Below, piece after piece: positions 3,931-52,238 of a stretch of 64,000 bases of DNA; the stretch's first letter is position 1; each line of letters starts with the position of its first letter. The translations under genes were made by a program, and so were the position numbers. The DNA lies in IMG/VR virus record IMGVR_UViG_3300037851_000284, positions 128,001-192,000 of that record, one strand, 5' to 3'. Source of the DNA: a virus (lineage: Duplodnaviria; Caudoviricetes). The notes under the pieces were generated by a model. That model ran no database searches. It was not told the origin of the DNA and saw only the letters and a program-made list of their open reading frames with translations.

Positions 3931-5039
3931 TGAGGTCCTCGTTTTCTAACAGAAATTTTATTATATTTATCAATTTCTTTAACTGCTTTTTTTGAATAAT
4001 CTATATTAGAATGGTATATAATATTTTTAAGAACAGGCTTATAGAATTTATTTTGTTCTTGAATAGATTGTGAAGAAAGAATATTATTTTCTGTTGTATA
4101 TAACGGACTTGGACTAAAATACGGAGGAGTCGTATTATTAGCAACAGGACAATATCCGGCGCCTATATCGATTCTAGGATTACCAAAGAGGTCAATGCTG
4201 TAACCAACATAAGGACTATTTCCGACCCGAGGAGGGGCGGTTACATTGACTAGAATAGTAGATAAGTTTAAAACGCTTGAACTTTGTTCTCCTTGAGACC
4301 ATAGGGTATATGGAGAATTATAACTTCTATTTTCTATCCATTCTCCAGACCATCCCCATTGATTAGAAGTATCAACGACTGTAGTACAAATAGAAGCCGT
4401 GTTGTCGTTGAATCCGCTATCTTCAATAGCACAATGGTCTAAAGTAATTATAAAATTTCCAGATAATTCATATGCAGAATAAGAAGTAAGGTTTGTTGTT
4501 TGTAATAAACTATCTTTAAATATTACTTGACTAGAACTCGTTGGTTCATCTGGAAAATTTATACAAATACAATCGTTACTACCATTAGAAAATATAGTAC
4601 ACCCTAAAATCGAGGACGTTTCGTTATCATTAATATAAATATCAACAAGACTTGTTTCGATGTAAGTTGTTTTAAAAGTTACATTCGATTCTACTTCTAA
4701 TCCTTGAACAATAAAAAGTAATCCTCCATCAATAATTGACCCAGAAGCAATTGAAATTACTGGTTGACGCCAATGTTCTGACGGATTTCCTTGATTATAA
4801 GTCATAATCCAAGGTTCGTCAACGCCATTTTCTTGATTTGTATGCCAAGGATGAATTTCTCCGCAAATAGTCAAATGAGCATGTTCTGCAGTATATAAGT
4901 GACTTCCAGTACCCTTAACATATAAAATATCAGAATGTGTAGTAATTACTTTATGCAACCATTCCTCTAATCCATAAGGATTACTAGTAGTTCCAGTTCC
5001 ACCAGAAGCCAAAGATAGATTATAATATAAATTTGCCAT
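3918..5039 (-). CDS. Putative beta-helix (pectin-lyase-like) tail appendage protein
   Basis: N-terminal YYNLSLASGGTGTTSNPY start, beta-strand-rich body, and a C-terminal DLFGNPRIDIGA motif typical of the ends of parallel beta-helix proteins. Confidence 0.5.
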   Translation of the reverse strand: MANLYYNLSLASGGTGTTSNPYGLEEWLHKVITTHSDILYVKGTGSHLYTAEHAHLTICGEIHPWHTNQENGVDEPWIMTYNQGNPSEHWRQPVISIASGSIIDGGLLFIVQGLEVESNVTFKTTYIETSLVDIYINDNETSSILGCTIFSNGSNDCICINFPDEPTSSSQVIFKDSLLQTTNLTSYSAYELSGNFIITLDHCAIEDSGFNDNTASICTTVVDTSNQWGWSGEWIENRSYNSPYTLWSQGEQSSSVLNLSTILVNVTAPPRVGNSPYVGYSIDLFGNPRIDIGAGYCPVANNTTPPYFSPSPLYTTENNILSSQSIQEQNKFYKPVLKNIIYHSNIDYSKKAVKEIDKYNKISVRKRGPQWIY

Positions 5040-5041
5040 AT

Positions 5042-5455
5042 TTAGTACTGATAATATCTTGGTGATAGCCTGATAGGGTTACCACTTGCTATAACTCCGG
5101 CCTTATCAGGAGGAAGCAATTCTGACCATAATACTCCACTATTTGTATTATTATATGATACAAAATAACTATATACGTTTGCCCAAGATCCAGAAGCGAC
5201 AGTAAAAGTAACTTCAGATCCAAATAAGTGAGGGTCTGTTCCAGAAACAACTACCCAGTTAGAACATAGTTTTCTAGAATATCCACTACACGTCGTACTA
5301 GATAACTCAGTTAATCCTGAAGGAGTCTGATAACTTCTGGTAGGAACGACGGTGTTAGTGGCAAGACCTACATATACTCCACCATTACCCTCTATCTTAG
5401 TTTGTATGGCGCTTAATAACCAATATTGACCGCTTGTTGAAATTATTCCATTCAT
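5042..5455 (-). CDS. Small tail-fibre base/adaptor-type protein (137 aa)
   Basis: ELS...GYSR...W...F.VASGSW pattern seen in small phage minor tail proteins; distant paralog of 56815..57246. Confidence 0.5.
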   Translation of the reverse strand: MNGIISTSGQYWLLSAIQTKIEGNGGVYVGLATNTVVPTRSYQTPSGLTELSSTTCSGYSRKLCSNWVVVSGTDPHLFGSEVTFTVASGSWANVYSYFVSYNNTNSGVLWSELLPPDKAGVIASGNPIRLSPRYYQY

Positions 5456-6067
5456 TTAAATAAGTCCATCTATTATCTTTAATTCATCTATTGCACAACT
5501 CATTGTAGAAAGTTGATCAATAATACTAAGATCTTTTCCGAGAGTTGTATCAAAGACTGCTTCTGGAGTAAATGTTTTTTCAACATCATCCATTAATATT
5601 ATAAATTTAGTTGCAGATTTATCATATTTAACAATAATATGATGCCAATCTGTGTCACTAATCACTGCATCACTATGATATTCAACCTCACCATTTGGAT
5701 CATATATCATAAAGTTTTGAGTAGATTTTACTAATTGTAATGACCAATAATAACCACCTGTTGTATCATAAAAATTAAGAATAGTTATATTATTCAATGC
5801 TTCGGAATCATAACTAATTTGTTTGTAATAAAAATCTGCCTCGAAATCTTGAGAAGTATTAAAAGATTCAATATTTTGATTTGTAATTCTCCAAGTATCT
5901 TGTATAGCTCATTCTTCAACAGTAACATAAAGACATCTACCGACATACCCATCGATATACGCCCACTCGTCCCCTTTATGAGTTACTATTAAGTTATTAG
6001 GTCCCGAATCTGTATCATTATCTTCAAACTTAAGAAATAATATAGTTCCACTACTTGTAGCAGATGT
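5456..6067 (-). pseudogene. Second LamG/concanavalin-A-like domain, in frame with 6068..7087 but behind a TAG and interrupted by a TGA
   Basis: After TAG (6070-6068) the frame reads TSATSSGTILFLKFEDNDTDSGPNNL...YIDGYVGRCLYVTVEE, then TGA (5911-5909), then AIQDTWRI... into ORF 5456..5797 (WHHIIVKYD...IDELKII). This is a complete LamG pattern with no ATG of its own. Confidence 0.7.
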
Positions 6068-7087
6068 CTAACCAGACCCAACTATATCGATTCTAGAAAT
6101 ATTAGACCAATAACCTGAATTGTCTACTGTTGCTAAAAGCTTGGCTTGACAACTATTTATAGCAGTTATTCTACTACAAGTATGATATAAATTTGCATAT
6201 CCAAACTTATTAGTATATCCTGTGTCGGCTACTTTCCAAGAACCACTATAATTCAAGTATAAAGATACTGGAATATTAGACAAATAAAGAGGTTGAGCAT
6301 TTATATTAGTATAAACCTCTGCTTTAAATTGCAGCTTATCATTAGTACCAGATTTATAAGGCGTAAGTCTTTGATTTTTAATGACTGGCACAACTTTATT
6401 AGTATTTTTAAGTATTATTCTTCTATCGGTAGAAGTTGTTGTTGGACCATCATCATTATCTACATTATCTACTGATATTACACTATCATAAATTCTTATT
6501 TCATCAATCAATCCAGCAAACTGAGAATACCACGCCGCGCCAAAACGCAATGTTACTAGATTATTAGCAATAAATCTTTGCGTAGTGGGGTCATTTAATA
6601 TTTCTACGCCGTCAAGATAAACGAAGGAATATCCATTATTATATGTCCATAATATTTCATGTAGGTCGCTGTCACCAATAGTCCTGGTGCAATTAACATT
6701 AACTCCTCCGACGTTTAAGGCAATAGCCGTTTCGTACGGACTGTCTATTTCACCAGCAAGACGAATACCCCAATCAGCAGCTATGCTAGATGTAACGCCG
6801 CCTTTTGCAACAGGAAAAAAGGCGTTTACGACATCCGTAGTCTCCACCTTAATCCAAAAACGAACGGAAAAGGATGCAGTAGGAGCAAAATTAAAAAGAG
6901 CATTATTTGCCACTACTAATGCGCCATAATCATTCTGTGCTAATTTGCTAAAATTAAGACGAAATGCTTGACCGACAGCCCCAGCAGCATAGGTAGGAGT
7001 CAGTGACCCCTCCCAGGTCGCATACAAGCCAGCCTTTGACTCATCTGGATTATTTTCGCCTTTCCACCACAGTATAGGAGCAGTCAT
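6068..7087 (-). CDS. LamG/ConA-like lectin domain plus C-terminal docking module (putative receptor-binding protein)
   Basis: LamG hallmarks FSVRFWIK, LHEILWTYNNG..VYLDG and GLIDEIRIYD. The C-terminal ~115 aa are homologous to the C-terminus of 8721..10181. Confidence 0.75.
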   Translation of the reverse strand: MTAPILWWKGENNPDESKAGLYATWEGSLTPTYAAGAVGQAFRLNFSKLAQNDYGALVVANNALFNFAPTASFSVRFWIKVETTDVVNAFFPVAKGGVTSSIAADWGIRLAGEIDSPYETAIALNVGGVNVNCTRTIGDSDLHEILWTYNNGYSFVYLDGVEILNDPTTQRFIANNLVTLRFGAAWYSQFAGLIDEIRIYDSVISVDNVDNDDGPTTTSTDRRIILKNTNKVVPVIKNQRLTPYKSGTNDKLQFKAEVYTNINAQPLYLSNIPVSLYLNYSGSWKVADTGYTNKFGYANLYHTCSRITAINSCQAKLLATVDNSGYWSNISRIDIVGSG

Positions 7088-43232: not shown

Positions 43233-45542
43233 TTATTCGGACCAAATATTCTTAGGATATTGAGTCTCTTTAGCAGCTTGATAATCCTGATTTAGTTTAT
43301 AAATATTTGGAGTACTTTCAGGTGTAGTATAGTTTTTATTAGTTTGCATTTTTAACGTTTCTACCATCTCGTCCCTAGGTAAATTTTTTATTTTAGGAGG
43401 GACATAAGGAGGATTAGGTTTTACTTCGTTTCCATAGTTATACCCATATGGAGTAGGTGTTGTGTTTCTATATCCTATTCCTAGATTTCTTCTTATAGTT
43501 TTTTCAAACATTACAGGAGAATAAAACTTTTTCTCCGATTGTAAGTGATAGTGGTCGTTTATATAATCTACGCGTGTACCAATTTCAATCTTTTGTCCCA
43601 CTTTTAAATTTTTCGTATATGAACTAGGAATATGAGCGTATCTTACTACACCTTGATTAGTTCTAATGCTAAATGATTCTTTCCCTATTGAATAAACTTC
43701 TCCCCCAAAAGCAGCAGGAGCATAACCTGCTGTTTTTGTTATATTATTCTTTTTTATTATATTACTTATATCTGCGAAAACATAATTACTTTTTCCAGCA
43801 CTCAATGGATGTTCATCAGCCCTAGTAAAGTGAGTAATAGTTGTTCCAGTAATAGCAACTCCAGTTTCTGAACCATCGCTGGTCATATCTGATGCTTTTG
43901 GAACAATATTCTTTTTCTCTGTATTGGCTATTTGTTCTACTTGTTTTAAAGCTTCAGCTTCATTTCTAGCCTCTGCTGAGTTTTCTTCAAATATAGAAAG
44001 AGAATAATTTGGTGCGGGTTCTTGTTTAGTTTCTACTTCTTTAATCTTATTTTTTTCTCTTTCTTTAGGAGTTAAAGATTCCTGCTTAGGAGCGCTAGGT
44101 GGTTTTCCCCAGAATAAATCTTCTCTAGATAATAGGTTGGTTGCTTTAAATCCTGTTCTGGTAGGAGATATTACTTTAAATGTGTATGTATCTGGGATTC
44201 TTTGTTCTAATATCATGGTAATTTTTTCATCAGGAATAGTAGTATTACCATTTAAATTACCAAAAGTAGTAGCGACTATGAGTTGAGAATACCTTGATAG
44301 GTTTACAGGATCTGTATCAGTTACTTTAGCATTTATTACATTCTCAACAAAAGAACTTAATTGGTCTATAAATGGAGTGACTTTATTATAAGAAAAAGAT
44401 AATTTACTAATAACTTTATTCAAAGGTTTCCAGCCATTGTTACGTAAGAAAGATGCCTCAGTAGCAACAGTAACATAAGTTCCTTGTTTATCATCTAGGA
44501 AGTTCTCAAGTTTTTCTATATCTTCATATTTTGATAATTTACTATCTGTTCTGACAGAAAGTTTAACTGGATTTAATCTTATTACACTATTTGAGCTTGT
44601 AATACTATCATTTATATCCCTAGCTATAAAAGTGTACATTTCTCCAATGGGGTCTCCAGTTGGGGCAACTATTAAACTATTACTGGTAAAATGAACATCG
44701 TTTAATATTATTACTGTATGTTCCGCCCTATAATCATTAATATCTCCAAAGGTTAACATTATATTTAATACATTAGCATAACTTCTACCTTTAGCTGTTA
44801 TTATACCACCGTTAGTTTCATGATAATCAAACTCGTCGGCTCTTTTAATCTTATTCAAAAGAGTAAGCTGCTTACCATTCTGGTCTCCCCATATACTATC
44901 TTCTAATATTTCGGCAAAATCCTCAAAATCTCTATTCTCACGATCAAAACCCATATCTTGACTCAAACTGGTAGAAATCTTTTTACTAGATAATATTTGT
45001 TCTATAGTTTGACCTTGTCGTATAAAGTTTGGTGTTCCATCAAGATTATAAACCGCTTCAACTTTAGTACCATCTTCGTTTATAGTAGTTAATCCAGGAA
45101 CGAACTCTTGTTTATCTTGCAGCTCATCAGAATAAGATTTTAACTTTCTCTGAACTGCTTCAGCTTTATTTTTCCTTTGAGAATCTATAAGAGCTTGAAT
45201 TATATTTAAATAACCAGTTTCTTTAAAGGCAATAGCTAGATTACCTTCTACTATTACCTGTCCCTTAGCTATAGCATCAAAGTTCTGAGAAGCATACCCA
45301 TAAATAGGAACTTTAGATTGAGTAACATTATATTGGATAGTAATTATATCATCCACCCAGACATCACCAAAAAATATCTTACAGTCAGTTCCTGCAAAAT
45401 AATCATACGGATAAGTTTGATAGTTATCTCTAAATGCCGTTGCTGAAGTAAATGGGTCTTTAGATGAACCGGAAAAACTCTTAGCCTGTTTTTCCTGCAT
45501 TGCGGTCTTAGTCTGCCTTAATTGATTTTGTAAGTCTACCAT
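43233..45542 (-). CDS. Tube-like (tube initiator) domain fused to a C-terminal M23-peptidase-like domain (769 aa)
   Basis: The N-terminus aligns with the tube paralogs (FAGTDCKIFF...IQYNVTQSKVPIYGY; MYTFIARD). The C-terminus has AFGGEV, RYAHI...LKVGQKIEIG...DHYHLQ. Confidence 0.55.
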   Translation of the reverse strand: MVDLQNQLRQTKTAMQEKQAKSFSGSSKDPFTSATAFRDNYQTYPYDYFAGTDCKIFFGDVWVDDIITIQYNVTQSKVPIYGYASQNFDAIAKGQVIVEGNLAIAFKETGYLNIIQALIDSQRKNKAEAVQRKLKSYSDELQDKQEFVPGLTTINEDGTKVEAVYNLDGTPNFIRQGQTIEQILSSKKISTSLSQDMGFDRENRDFEDFAEILEDSIWGDQNGKQLTLLNKIKRADEFDYHETNGGIITAKGRSYANVLNIMLTFGDINDYRAEHTVIILNDVHFTSNSLIVAPTGDPIGEMYTFIARDINDSITSSNSVIRLNPVKLSVRTDSKLSKYEDIEKLENFLDDKQGTYVTVATEASFLRNNGWKPLNKVISKLSFSYNKVTPFIDQLSSFVENVINAKVTDTDPVNLSRYSQLIVATTFGNLNGNTTIPDEKITMILEQRIPDTYTFKVISPTRTGFKATNLLSREDLFWGKPPSAPKQESLTPKEREKNKIKEVETKQEPAPNYSLSIFEENSAEARNEAEALKQVEQIANTEKKNIVPKASDMTSDGSETGVAITGTTITHFTRADEHPLSAGKSNYVFADISNIIKKNNITKTAGYAPAAFGGEVYSIGKESFSIRTNQGVVRYAHIPSSYTKNLKVGQKIEIGTRVDYINDHYHLQSEKKFYSPVMFEKTIRRNLGIGYRNTTPTPYGYNYGNEVKPNPPYVPPKIKNLPRDEMVETLKMQTNKNYTTPESTPNIYKLNQDYQAAKETQYPKNIWSE

Positions 45543-46633
45543 TCTCTAGTAGTTGTTCCTATTGGTGTGTTTACAGCATGACTTATATAATCATTTACAC
45601 TGGTAGCAACCCCATTATCAAGACTTCCCTGAGCATTCCAACCAGTCAAAGTTCTTTGTTTAATCTCTATTTGGTTATTAATGGATTCTAATTCTTTATA
45701 TAATCCTGTTAGTATTTTTAATTGTTTATCTTTCTCTCTCTTTAAATCTTCTCTTGAAACATAATCTTTACCATTAGCTAATCTATTTAGCCATTCCGAT
45801 GCATAAAAAGTAAACGCTCCAGCCACTGCTCTTTTATTAGTTTCTTTATCTATCTCAGCTATAATAGTTTCACAATCAGTAATATCTTGTTGAACTTTCT
45901 TTTGATAATCCATAAGAGCAGAAAATTGATTATCAATAAATAATCCTTTAACTTGTCTTTCAAACATCATATCTTTAAATTCCGCAATATCTTTATAAGC
46001 TATCATCTGGTCCATATCTTTAGCCACATATTGCATAGTACATTCACTATATAAATCGTTAATACTATGGACTTGACCCTCATCTAGAAATTCTACACCA
46101 TATAGTCTGGTAATTGAACGATGACCATATTCATTTTGAAATAATAGTATTAAATCAATAGGAGGTAGTTGGTCGGGTAAAGGAGAAGTGGTCCTATCCG
46201 AAGGATTCTTAATATAATTTAATTCTTTTATAACATCATAAAGTGGGGCTCTATCAAACACGATAAATATCATACTTCCCGCAATTGTTCTTGGACCAGC
46301 AGTATATCCTTTTGCGTGGGAACGACCTAAAACCCTTACAGCTGATTTTTCCCTATGAATAGAGTGAGATATAGTTTCTAGATTACCTAGAACTATAAGT
46401 TTATTATTAAGCTGAGCTATTACTGTACAGTCGCTGCCACTATAAGAAGTATTAGATTTACTAAAATCTATTAAAGGGTCAGCATCAAAAGGATTAGCCT
46501 CGGTAGGACCAAGGGACCCTCCAAGATAAGGTTGGGTAGAACCTAACAAATTAGTTTTAACTTGTTGGACCACGTCTTTAACAAATGGGTCTTTTTTTAA
46601 TTTATTAACTTGTTTATCTAACCACGTTGACAT
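45536..46633 (-). CDS. Tail tube paralog (tube initiator-like, 365 aa)
   Basis: GNLETISHSIHREKSAVRVLG...AGSMIF..FDR...DQLPP...NEYG...GVE...EG...SINDLYSE..MQYVA aligns end to end with the spliced tube protein. Confidence 0.75.
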   Translation of the reverse strand: MSTWLDKQVNKLKKDPFVKDVVQQVKTNLLGSTQPYLGGSLGPTEANPFDADPLIDFSKSNTSYSGSDCTVIAQLNNKLIVLGNLETISHSIHREKSAVRVLGRSHAKGYTAGPRTIAGSMIFIVFDRAPLYDVIKELNYIKNPSDRTTSPLPDQLPPIDLILLFQNEYGHRSITRLYGVEFLDEGQVHSINDLYSECTMQYVAKDMDQMIAYKDIAEFKDMMFERQVKGLFIDNQFSALMDYQKKVQQDITDCETIIAEIDKETNKRAVAGAFTFYASEWLNRLANGKDYVSREDLKREKDKQLKILTGLYKELESINNQIEIKQRTLTGWNAQGSLDNGVATSVNDYISHAVNTPIGTTTREW

Positions 46634-46646
46634 AATTTTTAGGTAT

Positions 46647-46672
46647 AAAGCCCTTGTTTTATTAAGGGCTTT
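46647..46672 (-). terminator. Hairpin terminator after the tail tube gene
   Basis: Inverted repeat AAAGCCCTT/AAGGGCTTT directly after the exon 3 stop. Confidence 0.6.
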
Positions 46673-46679
46673 ATTTTAA

Positions 46680-49405
46680 TTAAGCATTAAAAGGCAAACT
46701 TTGTGCAAGTTGAGCCTGTTGTATGGCGGTTAAGTTATTCATCTGAGTAAGAACATCAGCCTTAACATTAATATTTCCGCCTAGTTGAGAAATAGGTCTC
46801 CATCCAAGTATTGCGCGAGCTACGAATGTCCAATTATGTTAGCTTAATATTACTATTAAGATCGGACTGTGTCTTCACCTTTTGTTTACAAGAATGGCAG
46901 ATTCTGCTTTTATCGTGCAATAGAGAATAAATATTATTACATATATCACACTTTCTTCTACCATAATTTTCTTGATTTCTATTTTTTAACCAATTTTCAA
47001 AAACTTCTTTTTTACGAGAAAGATAAAAAGCGTTATTATCATACATATACCAAAATATAGATAGGCTTTCTAAGTGACTATATTGTAATCTATAACATTC
47101 TTCGTGATTATAAATTTTAGGTATTATTCCAAGCTCTTCTTTTAGTATATTACCAAAAGATTGTAAATTTTCTTTTAATTTATTTACTATTTGAACCTGC
47201 AACCAAGACCCGCTTTTATCGTTTCTTAAACTTATACATCCGTCTCCATCAAAGTAACCCCTAGTAAAATACTTAAAATATTTCTTATCTATAGTAGGAA
47301 AAATATTCATGTATGTTTTATTAGGAATAATTCCTAAAGATAAAAAATTTTGTACTAAATTGTTTGATGTTTTTTGAATATAAAAATATTTATTTTCATA
47401 TTGTGAGACAGAAGTGTCTAATTTTAGAATTTTTTGAATCCATTCTATTAAATCCTTATCTTTTGATTGCCATCTTATTCTTAAAGTGGATTTATTATAA
47501 TCTACACAACCATCAGCATAAGTGTAACCAAGCAAATAATAGAAATCTTCTTTTGTGCAATTAAGGGTACTACATACAGTCTCTGAGGGGAGTTTACCGT
47601 CATTTTGACATTCTCTTCCCTGCGAATTATCCATTTGGATTTTCTCGCATATAGTAGTATTTTTCATTAAAAGTTTCCTTTTAAGCAGACAACGATTCTA
47701 TCTGAGTTTCACTGACAATGTCGTCGATCGATACTCCAGCTCCTTCATTAATTAACTCAACTCCTAGAAGATGCATAGCAGAAATATTACCATACTCATT
47801 CATAGAGGTTAGTGTAATTGTAAAGGGCGGAAGTTGATCGGAATAGTTTGCGATACTTTTTTGTGATCCAAGTGCTCCCAAACTATCTAGATGTTCTTTA
47901 TGTTCTTTTCCCAATAACAAACTTCTTCCACCAGCAGGAATATCTGTAGATTTAGCATAATACTTGTATCTATCAGACGGTCCAGAATTACTGGCGCTAT
48001 AGGTTCCTTGCATGATATCATACAAGGCATGTCTATCGAAGTTTGTAAAGATCAAGGATCCAGCATGGCCTCTTTTGCCTCTGCCAAACGAAACAGCGTC
48101 AACAGATCCTAATACATAAATTGGCATTTGTAAATTAACCTTTGTTAATTAACAATGGACTATACCATCACCCATTTCTGGGGTCCAGCGTTTAGTCTCT
48201 GCAAGCGAATCTGATTTCTCAGTCTTGCTCTCAGGCTCCTTGTTAGATGAACTAACAACTTGGCTGATTTGAGCTGGATTAATTTTTCCAGGAGTTTCCC
48301 CACTGGCAAGCGCCAACTTTCTCGTAAGATTAAAACAATTAGAATAATACATAAAATTAAAAATCTTTTTAATATCCTCTTTCGAAGAATATCTAATTCT
48401 ATAACAATTAACAGATCCTTTATTGTGAATAGATGGATTTTTTTTGCTACATCCGATCTTTTCCAATTTTTTTTCTAAATCACTTATAAAATTAATATTT
48501 CCAAGAAATTGATATGTCTTTTTTGAATTATCTTGATAAAAAGAACCGTCTCCATCAAAATAACCACGAATTAGATCACGTAAAAATTCTTCTGGAACTT
48601 CCGGTAATCTTGCTCTAGCACTTTTATTTGGAATGACTCCTTTTATAATTATATCATTTACCATTTTTTTATTATGGATATATAAAGCGCAAGAATTGCG
48701 TGTTTTTTTAATACAAATAGGATTTTCACAATCCATTAATTTCTTAATATTAAATAAATGATTATAATCTTTCATTGATAATTCACACGAAATTCTATTT
48801 AGATGTGGTTCCACGCATCCATCTGCAAGAAAAAAACCAATCACATAAGCTGATTCCTTTGTCCAATTTTCAAAAAAATTGAAATTAATATTATAATTTC
48901 CGCATTTTCTTTGATATCCCAATTTTCTTGCTTGAACTTTAATTGCTTCTCTTGTTCTATTTGGTAATAATTTCCAAATATTTGGGTTACAAGAATAATT
49001 ATCTTTAATAATTTTATTCTCTTTTGCAGTCCATAGTTCTCTAGAATCTAATTGTAATTTACTAGCCTTATGTCCTATTGCGTTATAAGACAAATTTAAT
49101 TTATTTGCTATTTCCTTATATGATAATTTATTATAATTATCTTTAAGAAAATCAATTTTATATTTATCCCATTTTCTTGGAGAACAATTTCGTGTTATTT
49201 TTTCCATATTATTCTAACTCTTTTAAAATTAATGAGTTATCGCTTTTTCTCTTGTAGTAGAGAAACTTATACCATTCAAATTTCCGATTAGAATACCGTC
49301 AATGGTAGCGACGATATCTGTACCAGCAGAGGAATTATAAGATTGTCTTATACCCTCGGTTGCAGCTTCAACTGTTTGATAGTTGGCTGGGTTATTACTA
49401 CCCAT
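46680..49405 (-). CDS. Tail tube protein, three exons (49405-49241, 48124-47700, 46830-46680; 741 nt, 246 aa)
   Basis: GGAGG RBS then ATG at 49405. The joined exons give ...TTREKA|PIYVLG... and ...IVSETQM|TFVARAILGW...LPFNA*, colinear with the paralog 45536..46633 and directly downstream of the sheath gene. Confidence 0.88.
46831..47699 (-). mobile_element. Group I intron 2 (869 nt) in the tail tube gene
   Basis: Canonical U|...G| boundaries. P1 CAGAU/GUCUG with U-G wobble; P2 UUAAAAG-GAAA-CUUUUAA; P3 UACUAC/GUAGUA; P4 UGCGAG/UUCGCA; P7 GAGACUG/CAGUC; P9 CUUAAUA-GUAA-UAUUAAG. Confidence 0.92.
46834..47667 (-). CDS. Intron-encoded LAGLIDADG homing endonuclease (277 aa) with a C-terminal Cys4 zinc-ribbon-like motif
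   Basis: YYLLGYTYADGCV and YFTRGYFDGDGCI; CDIC...CHSC at the C-terminus. Confidence 0.9.
   Translation of the reverse strand: MKNTTICEKIQMDNSQGRECQNDGKLPSETVCSTLNCTKEDFYYLLGYTYADGCVDYNKSTLRIRWQSKDKDLIEWIQKILKLDTSVSQYENKYFYIQKTSNNLVQNFLSLGIIPNKTYMNIFPTIDKKYFKYFTRGYFDGDGCISLRNDKSGSWLQVQIVNKLKENLQSFGNILKEELGIIPKIYNHEECYRLQYSHLESLSIFWYMYDNNAFYLSRKKEVFENWLKNRNQENYGRRKCDICNNIYSLLHDKSRICHSCKQKVKTQSDLNSNIKLT
48125..49240 (-). mobile_element. Group I intron 1 (1116 nt) in the tail tube gene
   Basis: IGS AAAGUUGGCGCUU (48320-48308) complementary to the ligated exons; P2 CCAGUGGG-GAAA-CUCCUGG; P3 UCCAGC/GCUGGA; P6 GCAAG/CUUGC; P7 GAGACUA/UAGUC; P9 UUGUU/AACAA; terminal G at 48125. Confidence 0.88.
48149..49207 (-). 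CDS. Intron-encoded LAGLIDADG homing endonuclease (352 aa) with N-terminal HTH-like repeats
   Basis: AYVIGFFLADGCV and LIRGYFDGDGSF; N-terminal W...E...I.DNY repeats. Confidence 0.9.
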   Translation of the reverse strand: MEKITRNCSPRKWDKYKIDFLKDNYNKLSYKEIANKLNLSYNAIGHKASKLQLDSRELWTAKENKIIKDNYSCNPNIWKLLPNRTREAIKVQARKLGYQRKCGNYNINFNFFENWTKESAYVIGFFLADGCVEPHLNRISCELSMKDYNHLFNIKKLMDCENPICIKKTRNSCALYIHNKKMVNDIIIKGVIPNKSARARLPEVPEEFLRDLIRGYFDGDGSFYQDNSKKTYQFLGNINFISDLEKKLEKIGCSKKNPSIHNKGSVNCYRIRYSSKEDIKKIFNFMYYSNCFNLTRKLALASGETPGKINPAQISQVVSSSNKEPESKTEKSDSLAETKRWTPEMGDGIVHC

Positions 49406-49428
49406 GGATTCCTCCAAGGTTAAAATAA

Positions 49429-49457
49429 TAGGCGAGGAGATATTTCTCCCCGCCTAG
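49429..49457 (-). terminator. Rho-independent terminator after the sheath gene
   Basis: Minus strand TAGGCGGGGAGA-AATA-TCTCCTCGCCTA followed by TTATTTT. Confidence 0.7.
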
Positions 49458-49472
49458 ATATCCAACTAGCGA

Positions 49473-52238
49473 TTATCTAGTTGGGAGATTCTTACGTAGT
49501 TTTACTGTGGTTCTAATCTTTTTAATCGTAAAGATAGGAACCAGTATTAAATCTACTTCTATGATTCCCAGTACTTGCTGGTTAGGAGTAGATGAGATGG
49601 AGAAATCAAAACCTCTAAGACCAGACATACTCATAAGAGTATTAGATATCAACTGTTCTAGAGATGCTCTGACTTCAACACTATTTGGCTGACCAATAAA
49701 GGTTTCTGCTATAGCATAAACTCTATCAGAAGCCGCAGCTGTAATACTATACGTACTCCAGTTTACGAAATCGCTTCCAATAGGCGCAGCAGTTACGTCC
49801 TCTATAATAACTGGGTCTTTACCAATCCTAGTTTTCATAGTTACGTATCTTGCCGCATTTAGCGCCTCGTACTGTGATGTACTCAACGAATATCTAAGAG
49901 CTTGAATACCGTTAATAGATTTATTCGTTGGAGATATATCATAAGGCATTGATGCTATCATACCAGCATAGGCAGCCTGACCATTAGCAACATAAGGACG
50001 ACCTCTACCGACATTCAAGAATACTGGTTCAAAAGCAGCAATAGATATAAATTTACTCTGGATTAGAGACATTATATTTGCGGTTCTGTTTGGATCTTTT
50101 AGGTCTTTAACAGTTGCTTTTGTTACCCATTTATCTTTATGGGCTTGAGTTACTTCGTCCATCGGTGTTACAGCTAGTATTGCGTGAGGCTGAATATTAT
50201 TTATAGATAGATCTTCCATAAAATCATTAAGATCTGAATAATAATCTGCTGGAATTGTTTCCTTTAGACCAGTAATAGGATTAAATCTTTCAGAGAGTTC
50301 ATCTATAAATGCGCTCATTGGTACCCATATATTAGCTCCATAGTTACGAAGTCTATCATAACATGTTACCAATTCTTCTTTACGTTGACGAGGAGTTAGA
50401 ACGTTTCCGTTAGTACCTCCACTCAGAGATTTGGCAGCAGTAGTAATATTTGGGAATGTTGGAAGATAAGTATACCTAAATCTTATATAGGTCTTTGCTG
50501 TGTTTGTAAGTACACCAGCATTAGGTCCAGGTAATAGTTTAGGGTCATCAAACATTATCTTTCCATTAGCGGCATCACTGACTGTTAAATTACTTCCAAG
50601 TTCATATTCTGTTCTTGTTCCATAATTTACTGTCATATTAAATGCTGGAGGAGTATTAAATATAATCTCCTGACCTCTTACAAAGTAATCACTTAATGTA
50701 GTAGATGATGTTAATGCGTTAAGATTTTCCTTCTCAGTTAAAAATCCTTTAACTGTATTAGCTGTGATTCTGACATAAACTCCTTCTCTAATAACGTTTC
50801 CTGAAGTTACTATGCTTTGCATAATAGGACTATTTGCAAAAGAATCCGGTCCAATTTTAAATATTGCCACACCAGATGTATATTCAGATAAATAAATACC
50901 TGATATACCATTATAAGGAAGACTCTGCCAGAAATCATTAGGATCATCTGTAAGACAGACTTGAACATCAATTTTACCAGAAGGTCTTACTGAAACTCCA
51001 TCGATAGTTCTAGTAGCGATACCAGAACAGGTAGCTCTAGCTCGTCCAGAGAAACTACTCGTTCCGTTTCCAGAATAGTTGGCATATGTAGTAGTAATTA
51101 AACCGCTTATATATTTATCAGCTATTCCACTATTAACTAATTCTTCGTTATCGCAAATACATAGAGGAACAGTTATTCTTAGCGAGTTTGTTGCTACACC
51201 AGCACTAAAATAACCACCAGATCTGGTAGGTCCGCCTTCACCAGTTCCACCATCCATAAAAGCAGCATTAAGATTATAAATATATTCAGATTTTACAGTT
51301 CCCGACGGGTCTTGTATATATTCTGAGTCGCTATTATAATCGTAAAGAGCTTGGATAGTGTTCCAGCAAGCGGGAGCCTTACCGTCTAGAGGCATGTGTT
51401 TTAGTTTATTTACAGCTTTACCAGCACATTGAATCTGTTCATATTCTGAAATACTTACCGATTCAACGGTGTCGATTTCTATAATATCATTAGCAGCAGA
51501 AGTAATTCCGCGAATAGGAGTAGGAATCATATAACCGGTAGTTGTTATATAACCATTAGCTATTAGTTCTCCTAGATCTACTTCAACGAATTCCGTGGTG
51601 TTTGTTACACCAGTACTATTACCACTTATACATACTTCATAGTCTGCTAGAAGTCCTGAATAGGTGGCCTTTAAAATAGTATTTAAATTTGAATCAGCAT
51701 TTATTGCGTCTACCAGTTCAGCAACATTATGTGCAACGACGTTAGGATTTGTTGGTTTTTCAGTATCAATACTAAATGTAGAAGTAGTTCCAGTTTTTGG
51801 ATTATAAATAGCAACATCTCTATTTTCATCATAACTGATACTAACACCATTATATATGGAACCAGGATTTAAAGCTTCTAGTTTCATAGAAGTAGTGTTT
51901 CCGCCATATTCGGTATCTTCACCGCTGCCAGTAGTTTCTTCTATTTCTAACTTAGCAGTTTCGCCATTACCAAGACGAACTCCTACCACTGTAGGGTGCC
52001 CACCTTGTACATCCCAACATTCGAAGATTCCACGAACTAGATCTCCAGCACCAAGCCTACCCCATACATATTCAGCATCTTCAGGTTTTTCAATCTGAAT
52101 AGGCTCGTACATAGGACCATCTTCAGCTGTTCCTAATATTACGACCCGCTTATTTCTTTGTATAGGATTGGGTGATACGTTGAGACCATAATCTTGGATA
52201 TATGTAGCTGGAGAAGGTAGATTAATTTCCTTAGCCAT
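49473..52238 (-). CDS. Contractile tail sheath protein with large insertion domains (921 aa)
   Basis: VVILGTAEDGPMYEPI...AEYVWG, LSGGTNG, SPTNKSI.G...L...QYEALNAARY, and FIGQPN...L...I...L..M...RGFDF...IEVDL.LVPIF.IKKI sheath motifs. Confidence 0.93.
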   Translation of the reverse strand: MAKEINLPSPATYIQDYGLNVSPNPIQRNKRVVILGTAEDGPMYEPIQIEKPEDAEYVWGRLGAGDLVRGIFECWDVQGGHPTVVGVRLGNGETAKLEIEETTGSGEDTEYGGNTTSMKLEALNPGSIYNGVSISYDENRDVAIYNPKTGTTSTFSIDTEKPTNPNVVAHNVAELVDAINADSNLNTILKATYSGLLADYEVCISGNSTGVTNTTEFVEVDLGELIANGYITTTGYMIPTPIRGITSAANDIIEIDTVESVSISEYEQIQCAGKAVNKLKHMPLDGKAPACWNTIQALYDYNSDSEYIQDPSGTVKSEYIYNLNAAFMDGGTGEGGPTRSGGYFSAGVATNSLRITVPLCICDNEELVNSGIADKYISGLITTTYANYSGNGTSSFSGRARATCSGIATRTIDGVSVRPSGKIDVQVCLTDDPNDFWQSLPYNGISGIYLSEYTSGVAIFKIGPDSFANSPIMQSIVTSGNVIREGVYVRITANTVKGFLTEKENLNALTSSTTLSDYFVRGQEIIFNTPPAFNMTVNYGTRTEYELGSNLTVSDAANGKIMFDDPKLLPGPNAGVLTNTAKTYIRFRYTYLPTFPNITTAAKSLSGGTNGNVLTPRQRKEELVTCYDRLRNYGANIWVPMSAFIDELSERFNPITGLKETIPADYYSDLNDFMEDLSINNIQPHAILAVTPMDEVTQAHKDKWVTKATVKDLKDPNRTANIMSLIQSKFISIAAFEPVFLNVGRGRPYVANGQAAYAGMIASMPYDISPTNKSINGIQALRYSLSTSQYEALNAARYVTMKTRIGKDPVIIEDVTAAPIGSDFVNWSTYSITAAASDRVYAIAETFIGQPNSVEVRASLEQLISNTLMSMSGLRGFDFSISSTPNQQVLGIIEVDLILVPIFTIKKIRTTVKLRKNLPTR

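Follow-up and report, generated by a model that had tools for sequence, protein, structure and literature searches.

A virion gene of likely tail-tube/Hcp fold in an uncultured freshwater jumbo phage (219-kb genome, 0305phi8-36-like group) is very probably interrupted by two mobile group I introns, each with a LAGLIDADG endonuclease gene, and spliced to a messenger RNA (mRNA) for a protein of 246 amino acids (aa). The gene was found in a stretch of 64,000 nucleotides (nt) covering positions 128,001 to 192,000 of IMG/VR record IMGVR_UViG_3300037851_000284, referred to here as the window, and the features of the tube locus are all on its minus strand. The predicted parts of the gene, of which introns 1 and 2 each hold an open reading frame (ORF), are the following:

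49411..49415, minus strand: ribosome-binding site GGAGG, 5 nt upstream of ATG 49405
49241..49405, minus strand: exon 1, 55 codons, ending ...TTREKA with last base G, colinear with the related phage L004
48125..49240, minus strand: intron 1, group I, 1116 nt, ORF in the P1 loop and ribozyme core at the 3' end
47700..48124, minus strand: exon 2, starting with CCA (Pro) and ending with ...ETQ plus the AU of a Met codon, last base U
46831..47699, minus strand: intron 2, group I, 869 nt, ORF in the P8 loop
46680..46830, minus strand: exon 3, the G of the Met codon followed by TFVAR..., with stop codon TAA at 46682..46680

The frame of exon 1 runs into a stop three codons past its junction (ITH, stop). 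Exon 2 lies within an ORF of 148 aa (48127..47681, from MPIYVLG to ...SETQIESLSA), and exon 3 is a 50-codon open stretch which begins 3 bases past the intron 2 ORF and contains no ATG, GTG or TTG. When joined, the three exons (49405..49241, 48124..47700 and 46830..46680) form a single ORF of 741 nt encoding 246 aa. The joined protein shares 83% aa identity with that of L004, an IMG/VR relative used as the reference for the junctions and for substitution rates, and the alignment is gap-free at both junctions. Across these sites L004 reads ...TREKAPIYVMG... and ...TETQMTFVAR..., and since its gene is unbroken and colinear the junctions could be fixed at AAAGCG|CCAATT and CAGAT|GACATTC, giving predicted ligated reads of ...GAAAAAGCG-CCAATTT... 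for exons 1 and 2 and ...ACTCAGAT-GACATTC... for exons 2 and 3. The original prediction for this locus, made from the sequence alone, had named exactly these junctions, and its joining of ORF fragments 49229..49417 and 47681..48127 with an uncalled exon at 46680..46830 into a 246-aa protein is confirmed by the joined ORF and by L004. The start of the first fragment has to be revised, as it had been placed at a TTG (49417) and the likely start is ATG 49405 after GGAGG. It had also been foreseen that automated annotation would miss the gene; gene callers do indeed return two ORFs of 62 and 148 aa and leave the third exon uncalled, and Rfam is silent.

The profile of PHROG 9206 continues unbroken over the first two fragments, residues 19–59 of the first corresponding to profile positions 14–54 and residues 2–144 of the second to positions 55–154. 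The gene is unbroken in three cultured relatives, Moorella phage MTATph1 and the Bacillus jumbo phages WH1 and KLEB27-3, whose orthologs read REKAPVYVMG and TEKACTFVAR. In 20 homologs the motif TREKAP is invariant and E..MT...R is invariant or nearly so. The ratio of nonsynonymous to synonymous substitution rates (dN/dS) against L004 is 0.06 for the whole gene, 0.12 for exon 1 and 0.08 for exon 3; these low values indicate that all three exons are kept by selection.

Assignment of both interruptions to group I introns is supported by their anatomy and by comparison with relatives. The candidate elements of intron 1 are as follows:

48149..49207, minus strand: LAGLIDADG homing-endonuclease ORF, 352 aa, with an N-terminal helix-turn-helix region
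48308..48317, minus strand: guide sequence GUUGG|CGCUU, 10 nt, complement of the ligated exons AAGCG|CCAAU
48125..48317, minus strand: ribozyme core, 193 nt, with P2, P3, P4, P5, P6/P6a, P7, P8 and P9 and the terminal G at 48125

The CGCUU of the guide can pair with the end of exon 1 (AAGCG) as P1, and its GUUGG with the start of exon 2 (CCAAU) as P10. As this 10-nt guide is complementary to the ligated exons, the ORF is placed in the P1 loop; its final ~55 codons overlap the ribozyme core. P7 pairs GAGACU (48199..48194) with AGUCC (48161..48157). In seven aligned cores P2, P3, P4, P5, P6, P6a, P7 and P8 are supported, with 44 pairs that are 98.7% paired compared with 31–46% when the partners are slid, and with compensatory changes at 23 of the pairs; the observed pairing values were reached by none of 500 shuffles. 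The ORF matches PF14528 (LAGLIDADG_3; E 8.5e-10) and PHROG 4645 ‘endonuclease’ (E 1e-49) and has both LAGLIDADG motifs (...FFLADGCV... and ...YFDGDGSF...), each with its terminal acidic residue. Thirteen homologs of this endonuclease were found (55–71% identity), and the order sheath gene, short exon 1 ORF, endonuclease was seen in 11 of the 11 examined.

Intron 2 has a different layout, with these candidate elements:

47686..47690, minus strand: guide sequence GUCUG, pairing with the exon 2 end CAGAU
47568..47699, minus strand: 5' half of the core, with the P1 3' strand, P2 (GAAA loop), P3, P4, P5, P6/P6a, J6/7, the P7 5' strand and P3'
46831..46885, minus strand: 3' part of the core, with the P8 3' strand, the P7 3' strand CAGUC (46869..46865), P9 and the terminal G at 46831
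46834..47667, minus strand: LAGLIDADG homing-endonuclease ORF, 277 aa

Its P1 is canonical, the splice-site pair being a U·G wobble (U47700 with G47690). The 5' strand of P7 is GACUG (47581..47577), the J6/7–P7 segment reads CAGAGACUG, and P9 is a hairpin (46860..46843) closed by a GUAA loop. Helices P3 to P6, aligned with four related introns, comprise 19 pairs which are 91.6% paired versus 30–51% when slid, seven of them with compensatory changes. At the identical site, the relative L005 (IMGVR_UViG_3300035208_001008) carries an ORF-less intron (4339..4555) that scores 72.4 bits with the Rfam group I model RF00028 (gathering threshold 50 bits), has the same P1 (CAGAU/GUCUG) and agrees with intron 2 in 44 of 51 nt at the 3' end. 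The intron 2 ORF also matches PF14528 (E 1.8e-16) and PHROG 4645 ‘endonuclease’ (E 2.5e-42) and possesses both motifs (...YTYADGCV... and ...YFDGDGCI...) with their terminal acidic residues, so that an intact ORF for an endonuclease of the double-motif, monomeric LAGLIDADG type in each intron, as had been predicted for LAGLIDADG in general, is borne out. The two ORF products are 29% identical (E 9e-20), and that of intron 2 ends in a CxxC...CxxC tail which overlaps P8'–P9.

It was observed that the intron 2 ORF begins within P2 and runs through P3–P7 of its own ribozyme (window 47667..47568), where translation and ribozyme folding would compete; in the introns of L089 and L090 the ORF begins only past P3', within the P8 loop.

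A covariance model (R1), built from six relatives with the window excluded, matched intron 1 with 173.5 bits (E 1.9e-52; 48317..48142) and the 5' half of intron 2 with 24.6 bits (E 3.5e-6). These were the only two matches in the window, and the rest of the genome added a single one of 9.3 bits (E 0.7). Both introns have G as last base (48125 and 46831) and share with RF00028-positive relatives the core motifs CAGAGACU in J6/7–P7 and UAGUCC in P7', in agreement with the Rfam consensus; a conserved core from P3 to P8, with the P3/P7 pseudoknot and the G-binding P7 helix, is present in both. The P1–P9 helices and P7 signatures reported earlier for both interruptions agree with the covariation, with model R1 and with the L005 intron; as to the proposed check with group I models, RF00028 gave no match in the window and the relatives-built R1 matched both introns. 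Two other explanations of the interruptions were rejected, namely (i) inteins, as stop codons lie between the exons and the endonuclease ORFs and the frames differ, and (ii) translational bypass, which is ruled out by the size of ~1 kb and the ribozyme structure.

It is proposed that the transcribed introns would each fold into a ribozyme whose internal guide would bind both exons, pairing in P1 with the last bases of the upstream one and in P10 with the first bases of the downstream one. Transesterification initiated by guanosine would then excise the intron and the three exons would be ligated, yielding the mRNA for the 246-aa protein. The endonucleases would most likely cut intron-less copies of the gene at TREKA|P and ETQ|M in co-infecting relatives. 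From the features of the sequence we infer that both introns are spliced and that both predicted endonucleases are active.

The mobility of such introns is suggested by their distribution. An IMG/VR search returned three close relatives. L005 (2858-4720) has five ORF-less group I introns in its 246-codon tube gene, all above the Rfam threshold (60–85 bits); RF00028 further matches the tube gene once in L006 and additionally in L087, L088 and L089. Removal in silico at U|...G| boundaries gave intact colinear proteins for L005 (five introns), L006 (two) and L087 (three). Among the tube-gene introns of L006 and L087–L093 some have a LAGLIDADG ORF and some do not. The clade uses at least nine intron sites in this gene (TTR|E, EKA|P, G|SVD, GRG|K, GKR|G, GHAG-S within the Ser codon, SLI-F, DDIV| and ETQ-M), and (A/U)UG is the usual 3' end of the introns irrespective of reading phase. 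Close relatives differ in which sites are occupied, and introns are absent from the tube gene in the more distant L008–L017 (59–67% identity). Such presence/absence polymorphism is a hallmark of mobile introns, and insertion into the most conserved protein motifs is typical of homing-endonuclease targets. Endonuclease homing would explain the patchwork within the clade, and the pattern fits homing driven by the endonucleases during co-infection.

The product of the gene is likely a virion protein of tail-tube fold, judging by gene position, fold matches of a low-confidence model and the annotation of relatives. The neighbouring features are:

52238..49473, minus strand: tail-sheath gene, 921 aa (PHROG tail sheath)
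49429..49456, minus strand: terminator-like hairpin between sheath and tube genes, a 12-bp stem followed by a T run
46645..46674, strand not assigned: hairpin directly 3' of the tube gene stop
45536..46633, minus strand: unbroken 365-aa paralog with tube-like N-terminal domain (PHROG 9206, E 3.4e-31)
43233..46633, minus strand: genes of the 365-aa and 769-aa paralogs, with tube-like N-terminal domain (PHROG 9206)

The tube gene directly follows the tail-sheath gene, and this is the usual place of a tube gene. Three paralogs (246, 365 and 769 aa) with the tube-like N-terminal domain in common stand in a row, the tube gene first, and WH1 and KLEB27-3 likewise keep all three. The colinearity with the 365-aa paralog that had been claimed holds over the N-terminal ~215 residues of that paralog and fails for the remainder. 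The ortholog in KLEB27-3 is annotated as tail tube protein and that of WH1 as virion structural protein. Fold matches were obtained with an AlphaFold2 model of an unbroken relative, with a mean predicted local distance difference test score (pLDDT) of 54, and were used as a consistent trend only. All top Foldseek matches of this low-confidence model were tail-tube or Hcp proteins (E 3e-4, probability 0.98–1.0), and with VIA-align the tube/Hcp matches reached Z values of 6–7.4, where those below 8 can be non-specific, with a root-mean-square deviation of 3.3–4.5 over 91–105 residues. The tube of the Twort-like phage 812 was among the best fold matches of the same model. PDB sequences searched with a profile of the tube family gave no match. 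The 246-aa paralog is probably the main tube subunit.

Several observations weigh against a spliced tube gene: (i) RF00028 gave no match in the window at its gathering threshold nor at E ≤ 10, and none over the whole 219-kb genome, (ii) the homologous intron 1 cores of relatives score 25–29 bits with RF00028, below the 50-bit threshold, (iii) an in-frame AUG lies exactly at the first junction and opens fragment 2, with which separate translation is formally possible, (iv) no RNA run is listed among the public runs with the window sequence, (v) the tube assignment draws on a poor structure model (mean pLDDT 54), (vi) the label of the PHROG 9206 family is ‘major head protein’, and (vii) intron 1 has a G–C pair in the window at its 5' splice site instead of the U·G wobble, which is regarded as near-universal in group I introns. 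Engineered Anabaena introns require a pyrimidine paired to G at the splice site and do not react when the pair is reversed (PMC12355055). The failure of Rfam on both cores is explained by the endonuclease ORFs that split them, and the head-protein label is probably an inherited misannotation.

The splice site of intron 1 was examined across the 11 loci of its family. In three of them the final base of exon 1 and the guide base opposite it are G–C, in five A–U, and in one each C·A, U–A and U·G. The exon base, a third codon position, seems to drift between G, A, C and U while the guide follows with C, U, A, and A or G, respectively, and exon positions -1 and -4 covary with the guide. The last intron base (G), the CC at the start of exon 2 and the guide GG able to pair with it are invariant in all 11 loci. 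Such a pattern points clearly to selection on the P1 pairing and not on the wobble geometry.

Other registers for intron 1 were considered and rejected. A register one base to the left is the sole alternative yielding the right protein, and in the window its mRNA would be unchanged, but each of the 11 introns would then end in U or A. A cut after the next U (GCGAU|, ACU| or CAU|) would cause a frameshift or leave 2–6 extra residues inside an invariant motif. No alternative guide sequence was found in the 34 nt upstream of the intron 1 ORF. Introns with this odd splice site may splice efficiently as they are, may need a protein helper or may use some other feature. It is suggested tentatively, and with somewhat less than even confidence, that the lineage of intron 1, seen at 11 loci and each time at TREKA|P, splices without U·G and tolerates any pair, perhaps with its own LAGLIDADG protein as maturase, and that the tube gene is an exceptional intron hot-spot.

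The introns may be real and the protein something other than the main tube subunit, for example a tube initiator, a terminator or a second tube layer. This would seem rather unlikely. The presence of three tube-like paralogs in a row, the middling fold match (Z ~7) from the pLDDT-54 model and the empty search of PDB sequences would agree with such a role; however, it is the 246-aa paralog that stands immediately after the sheath gene and is the most conserved of the three, and its orthologs carry the tail tube (KLEB27-3) and virion structural protein (WH1) annotations.

A gene in pieces whose fragments are translated separately and assemble non-covalently, without splicing, is considered very improbable. 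A model for it would be the T4-like phage Aeh1, in which nrdA is reportedly split by mobE and the fragments assemble in this manner. Fragment 1 does stop three codons past the junction, and the AUG that opens fragment 2 in the window has a counterpart, AUG or UUG right before exon 2, in 9 of 11 members of the intron 1 family. However, L087 (AAG) and L093 (UAG) have no start codon at this position, and (A/U)UG is the customary end of introns in the tube gene whatever the phase. Exon 3 is start-less yet under purifying selection, and the compensatory changes that keep the ribozyme cores and P1 are sensible only if the RNA acts. A decaying pseudogene, in which the invaded copy is dead and the unbroken 365-aa paralog directly downstream supplies the tube, is the least credible explanation, as intron 1 does lack a canonical splice-site pair but the exons are free of frameshifts and stops with a dN/dS of 0.06 against L004, the intron-bearing orthologs of L087, L005 and L006 are intact after in-silico splicing, and relatives retain all three paralogs.

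Group I introns in structural genes of phages, including tail-tube genes, are already known, and a spliced tube gene has to be seen in that light. Landthaler and Shub are said to have described, in 1999, three group I introns in orf142 of Staphylococcus phage Twort. The original prediction had cited orf142 as a late gene; it is itself a tail-tube gene (PMC11878797), and the argument for novelty is weakened to that extent. Both cases would have in common a late, highly expressed myovirus tail-tube gene with several group I introns. The proteins and introns are without detectable sequence similarity, both introns in the window carry LAGLIDADG ORFs and belong to a freshwater jumbo phage, and the relatives of this phage use many more insertion sites, the five introns of L005 exceeding the three of Twort. 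The ORF-less RF00028-positive introns of L005, L006 and L087–L089 are in the same gene, with the intron 2 site shared by L005. They are uninterrupted, whereas the ORFs in L1 and L8 of the window introns break the Rfam alignment; some introns of relatives have P7.1/P7.2-like insertions, which the window introns lack.

In introns of Bastillevirinae, Tevenvirinae and SPO1-like phages the homing-endonuclease ORF is also placed in a peripheral loop, and Rfam hits are partial and split by that loop (PMC11878797). DNA polymerase, ribonucleotide reductase and terminase genes host most of those introns, HNH or GIY-YIG endonucleases predominate in them, and LAGLIDADG was reported once (PMC11878797). The window resembles them in a peripheral-loop ORF that disrupts the Rfam alignment and differs in its tube host gene and LAGLIDADG type. 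Among cultured phages, the nearest homolog of the intron 1 endonuclease is in Staphylococcus Kayvirus St14.GH (PV641622.1 128354-130970), with 27% identity over 84% of the length. It is located between two halves of a ‘recombinase’ coding sequence (CDS), just as the intron 1 ORF splits the tube gene, and presumably lies in an intron of the recombinase gene; the host gene is different and the sequence distant.

Two points merit specialist attention, the density of introns in the clade and the lack of a wobble at the intron 1 splice site. If splicing with a Watson–Crick pair is true, intron 1 would relax a near-universal rule of group I ribozymes and could be useful for engineered ribozymes, e.g., in scarless circular-RNA designs. 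With an independent lineage beside Twort, it appears that tail-tube genes, besides those of DNA metabolism, attract group I introns. A clade with one short structural gene invaded at many sites would also offer a natural system for the study of homing-endonuclease competition between co-infecting phages. For annotation, callers split an essential virion gene and mislabel its pieces, and the introns go unflagged by Rfam; hidden introns of this kind are therefore probably widespread among metagenomic jumbo phages.

Searches of GenBank phages by megablast with the locus, and by blastn with both ribozyme cores, gave no match, and a peptide-pattern search of IMG/VR found no close relatives of either endonuclease. 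Four DNA metagenome runs contain contigs of the same phage with the introns present in all, and no intron-less joint was seen in these contigs.

Some minor observations were made in relatives of the locus. A missing first exon was considered for MTATph1 and rejected, the gene being unbroken with a misannotated GTG start: in GenBank the CDS of its tube ortholog (L003:3850-4013, OR602862.1) starts at an internal ATG, and the true start is a GTG ~160 nt upstream, after GGGAGG. The tube gene of L005 has, close to its 3' end (4660-4690), an imperfect tandem duplication of 14 nt, either real or an assembly error, which causes a frameshift and shortens the protein by ~12 residues. The third tube-like paralog of one relative (765 aa; gene 4311-6158 in the ENA contigs carrying P0004) has Hint/intein-splicing and LAGLIDADG domains, which suggests that this gene block is invaded by inteins in addition to introns. 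The sole difference among the four metagenome runs was found in run X2, a second freshwater metagenome with both introns present, and is a 9-nt in-frame deletion at window position 47891, within a variable, lysine- and histidine-rich loop of exon 2.

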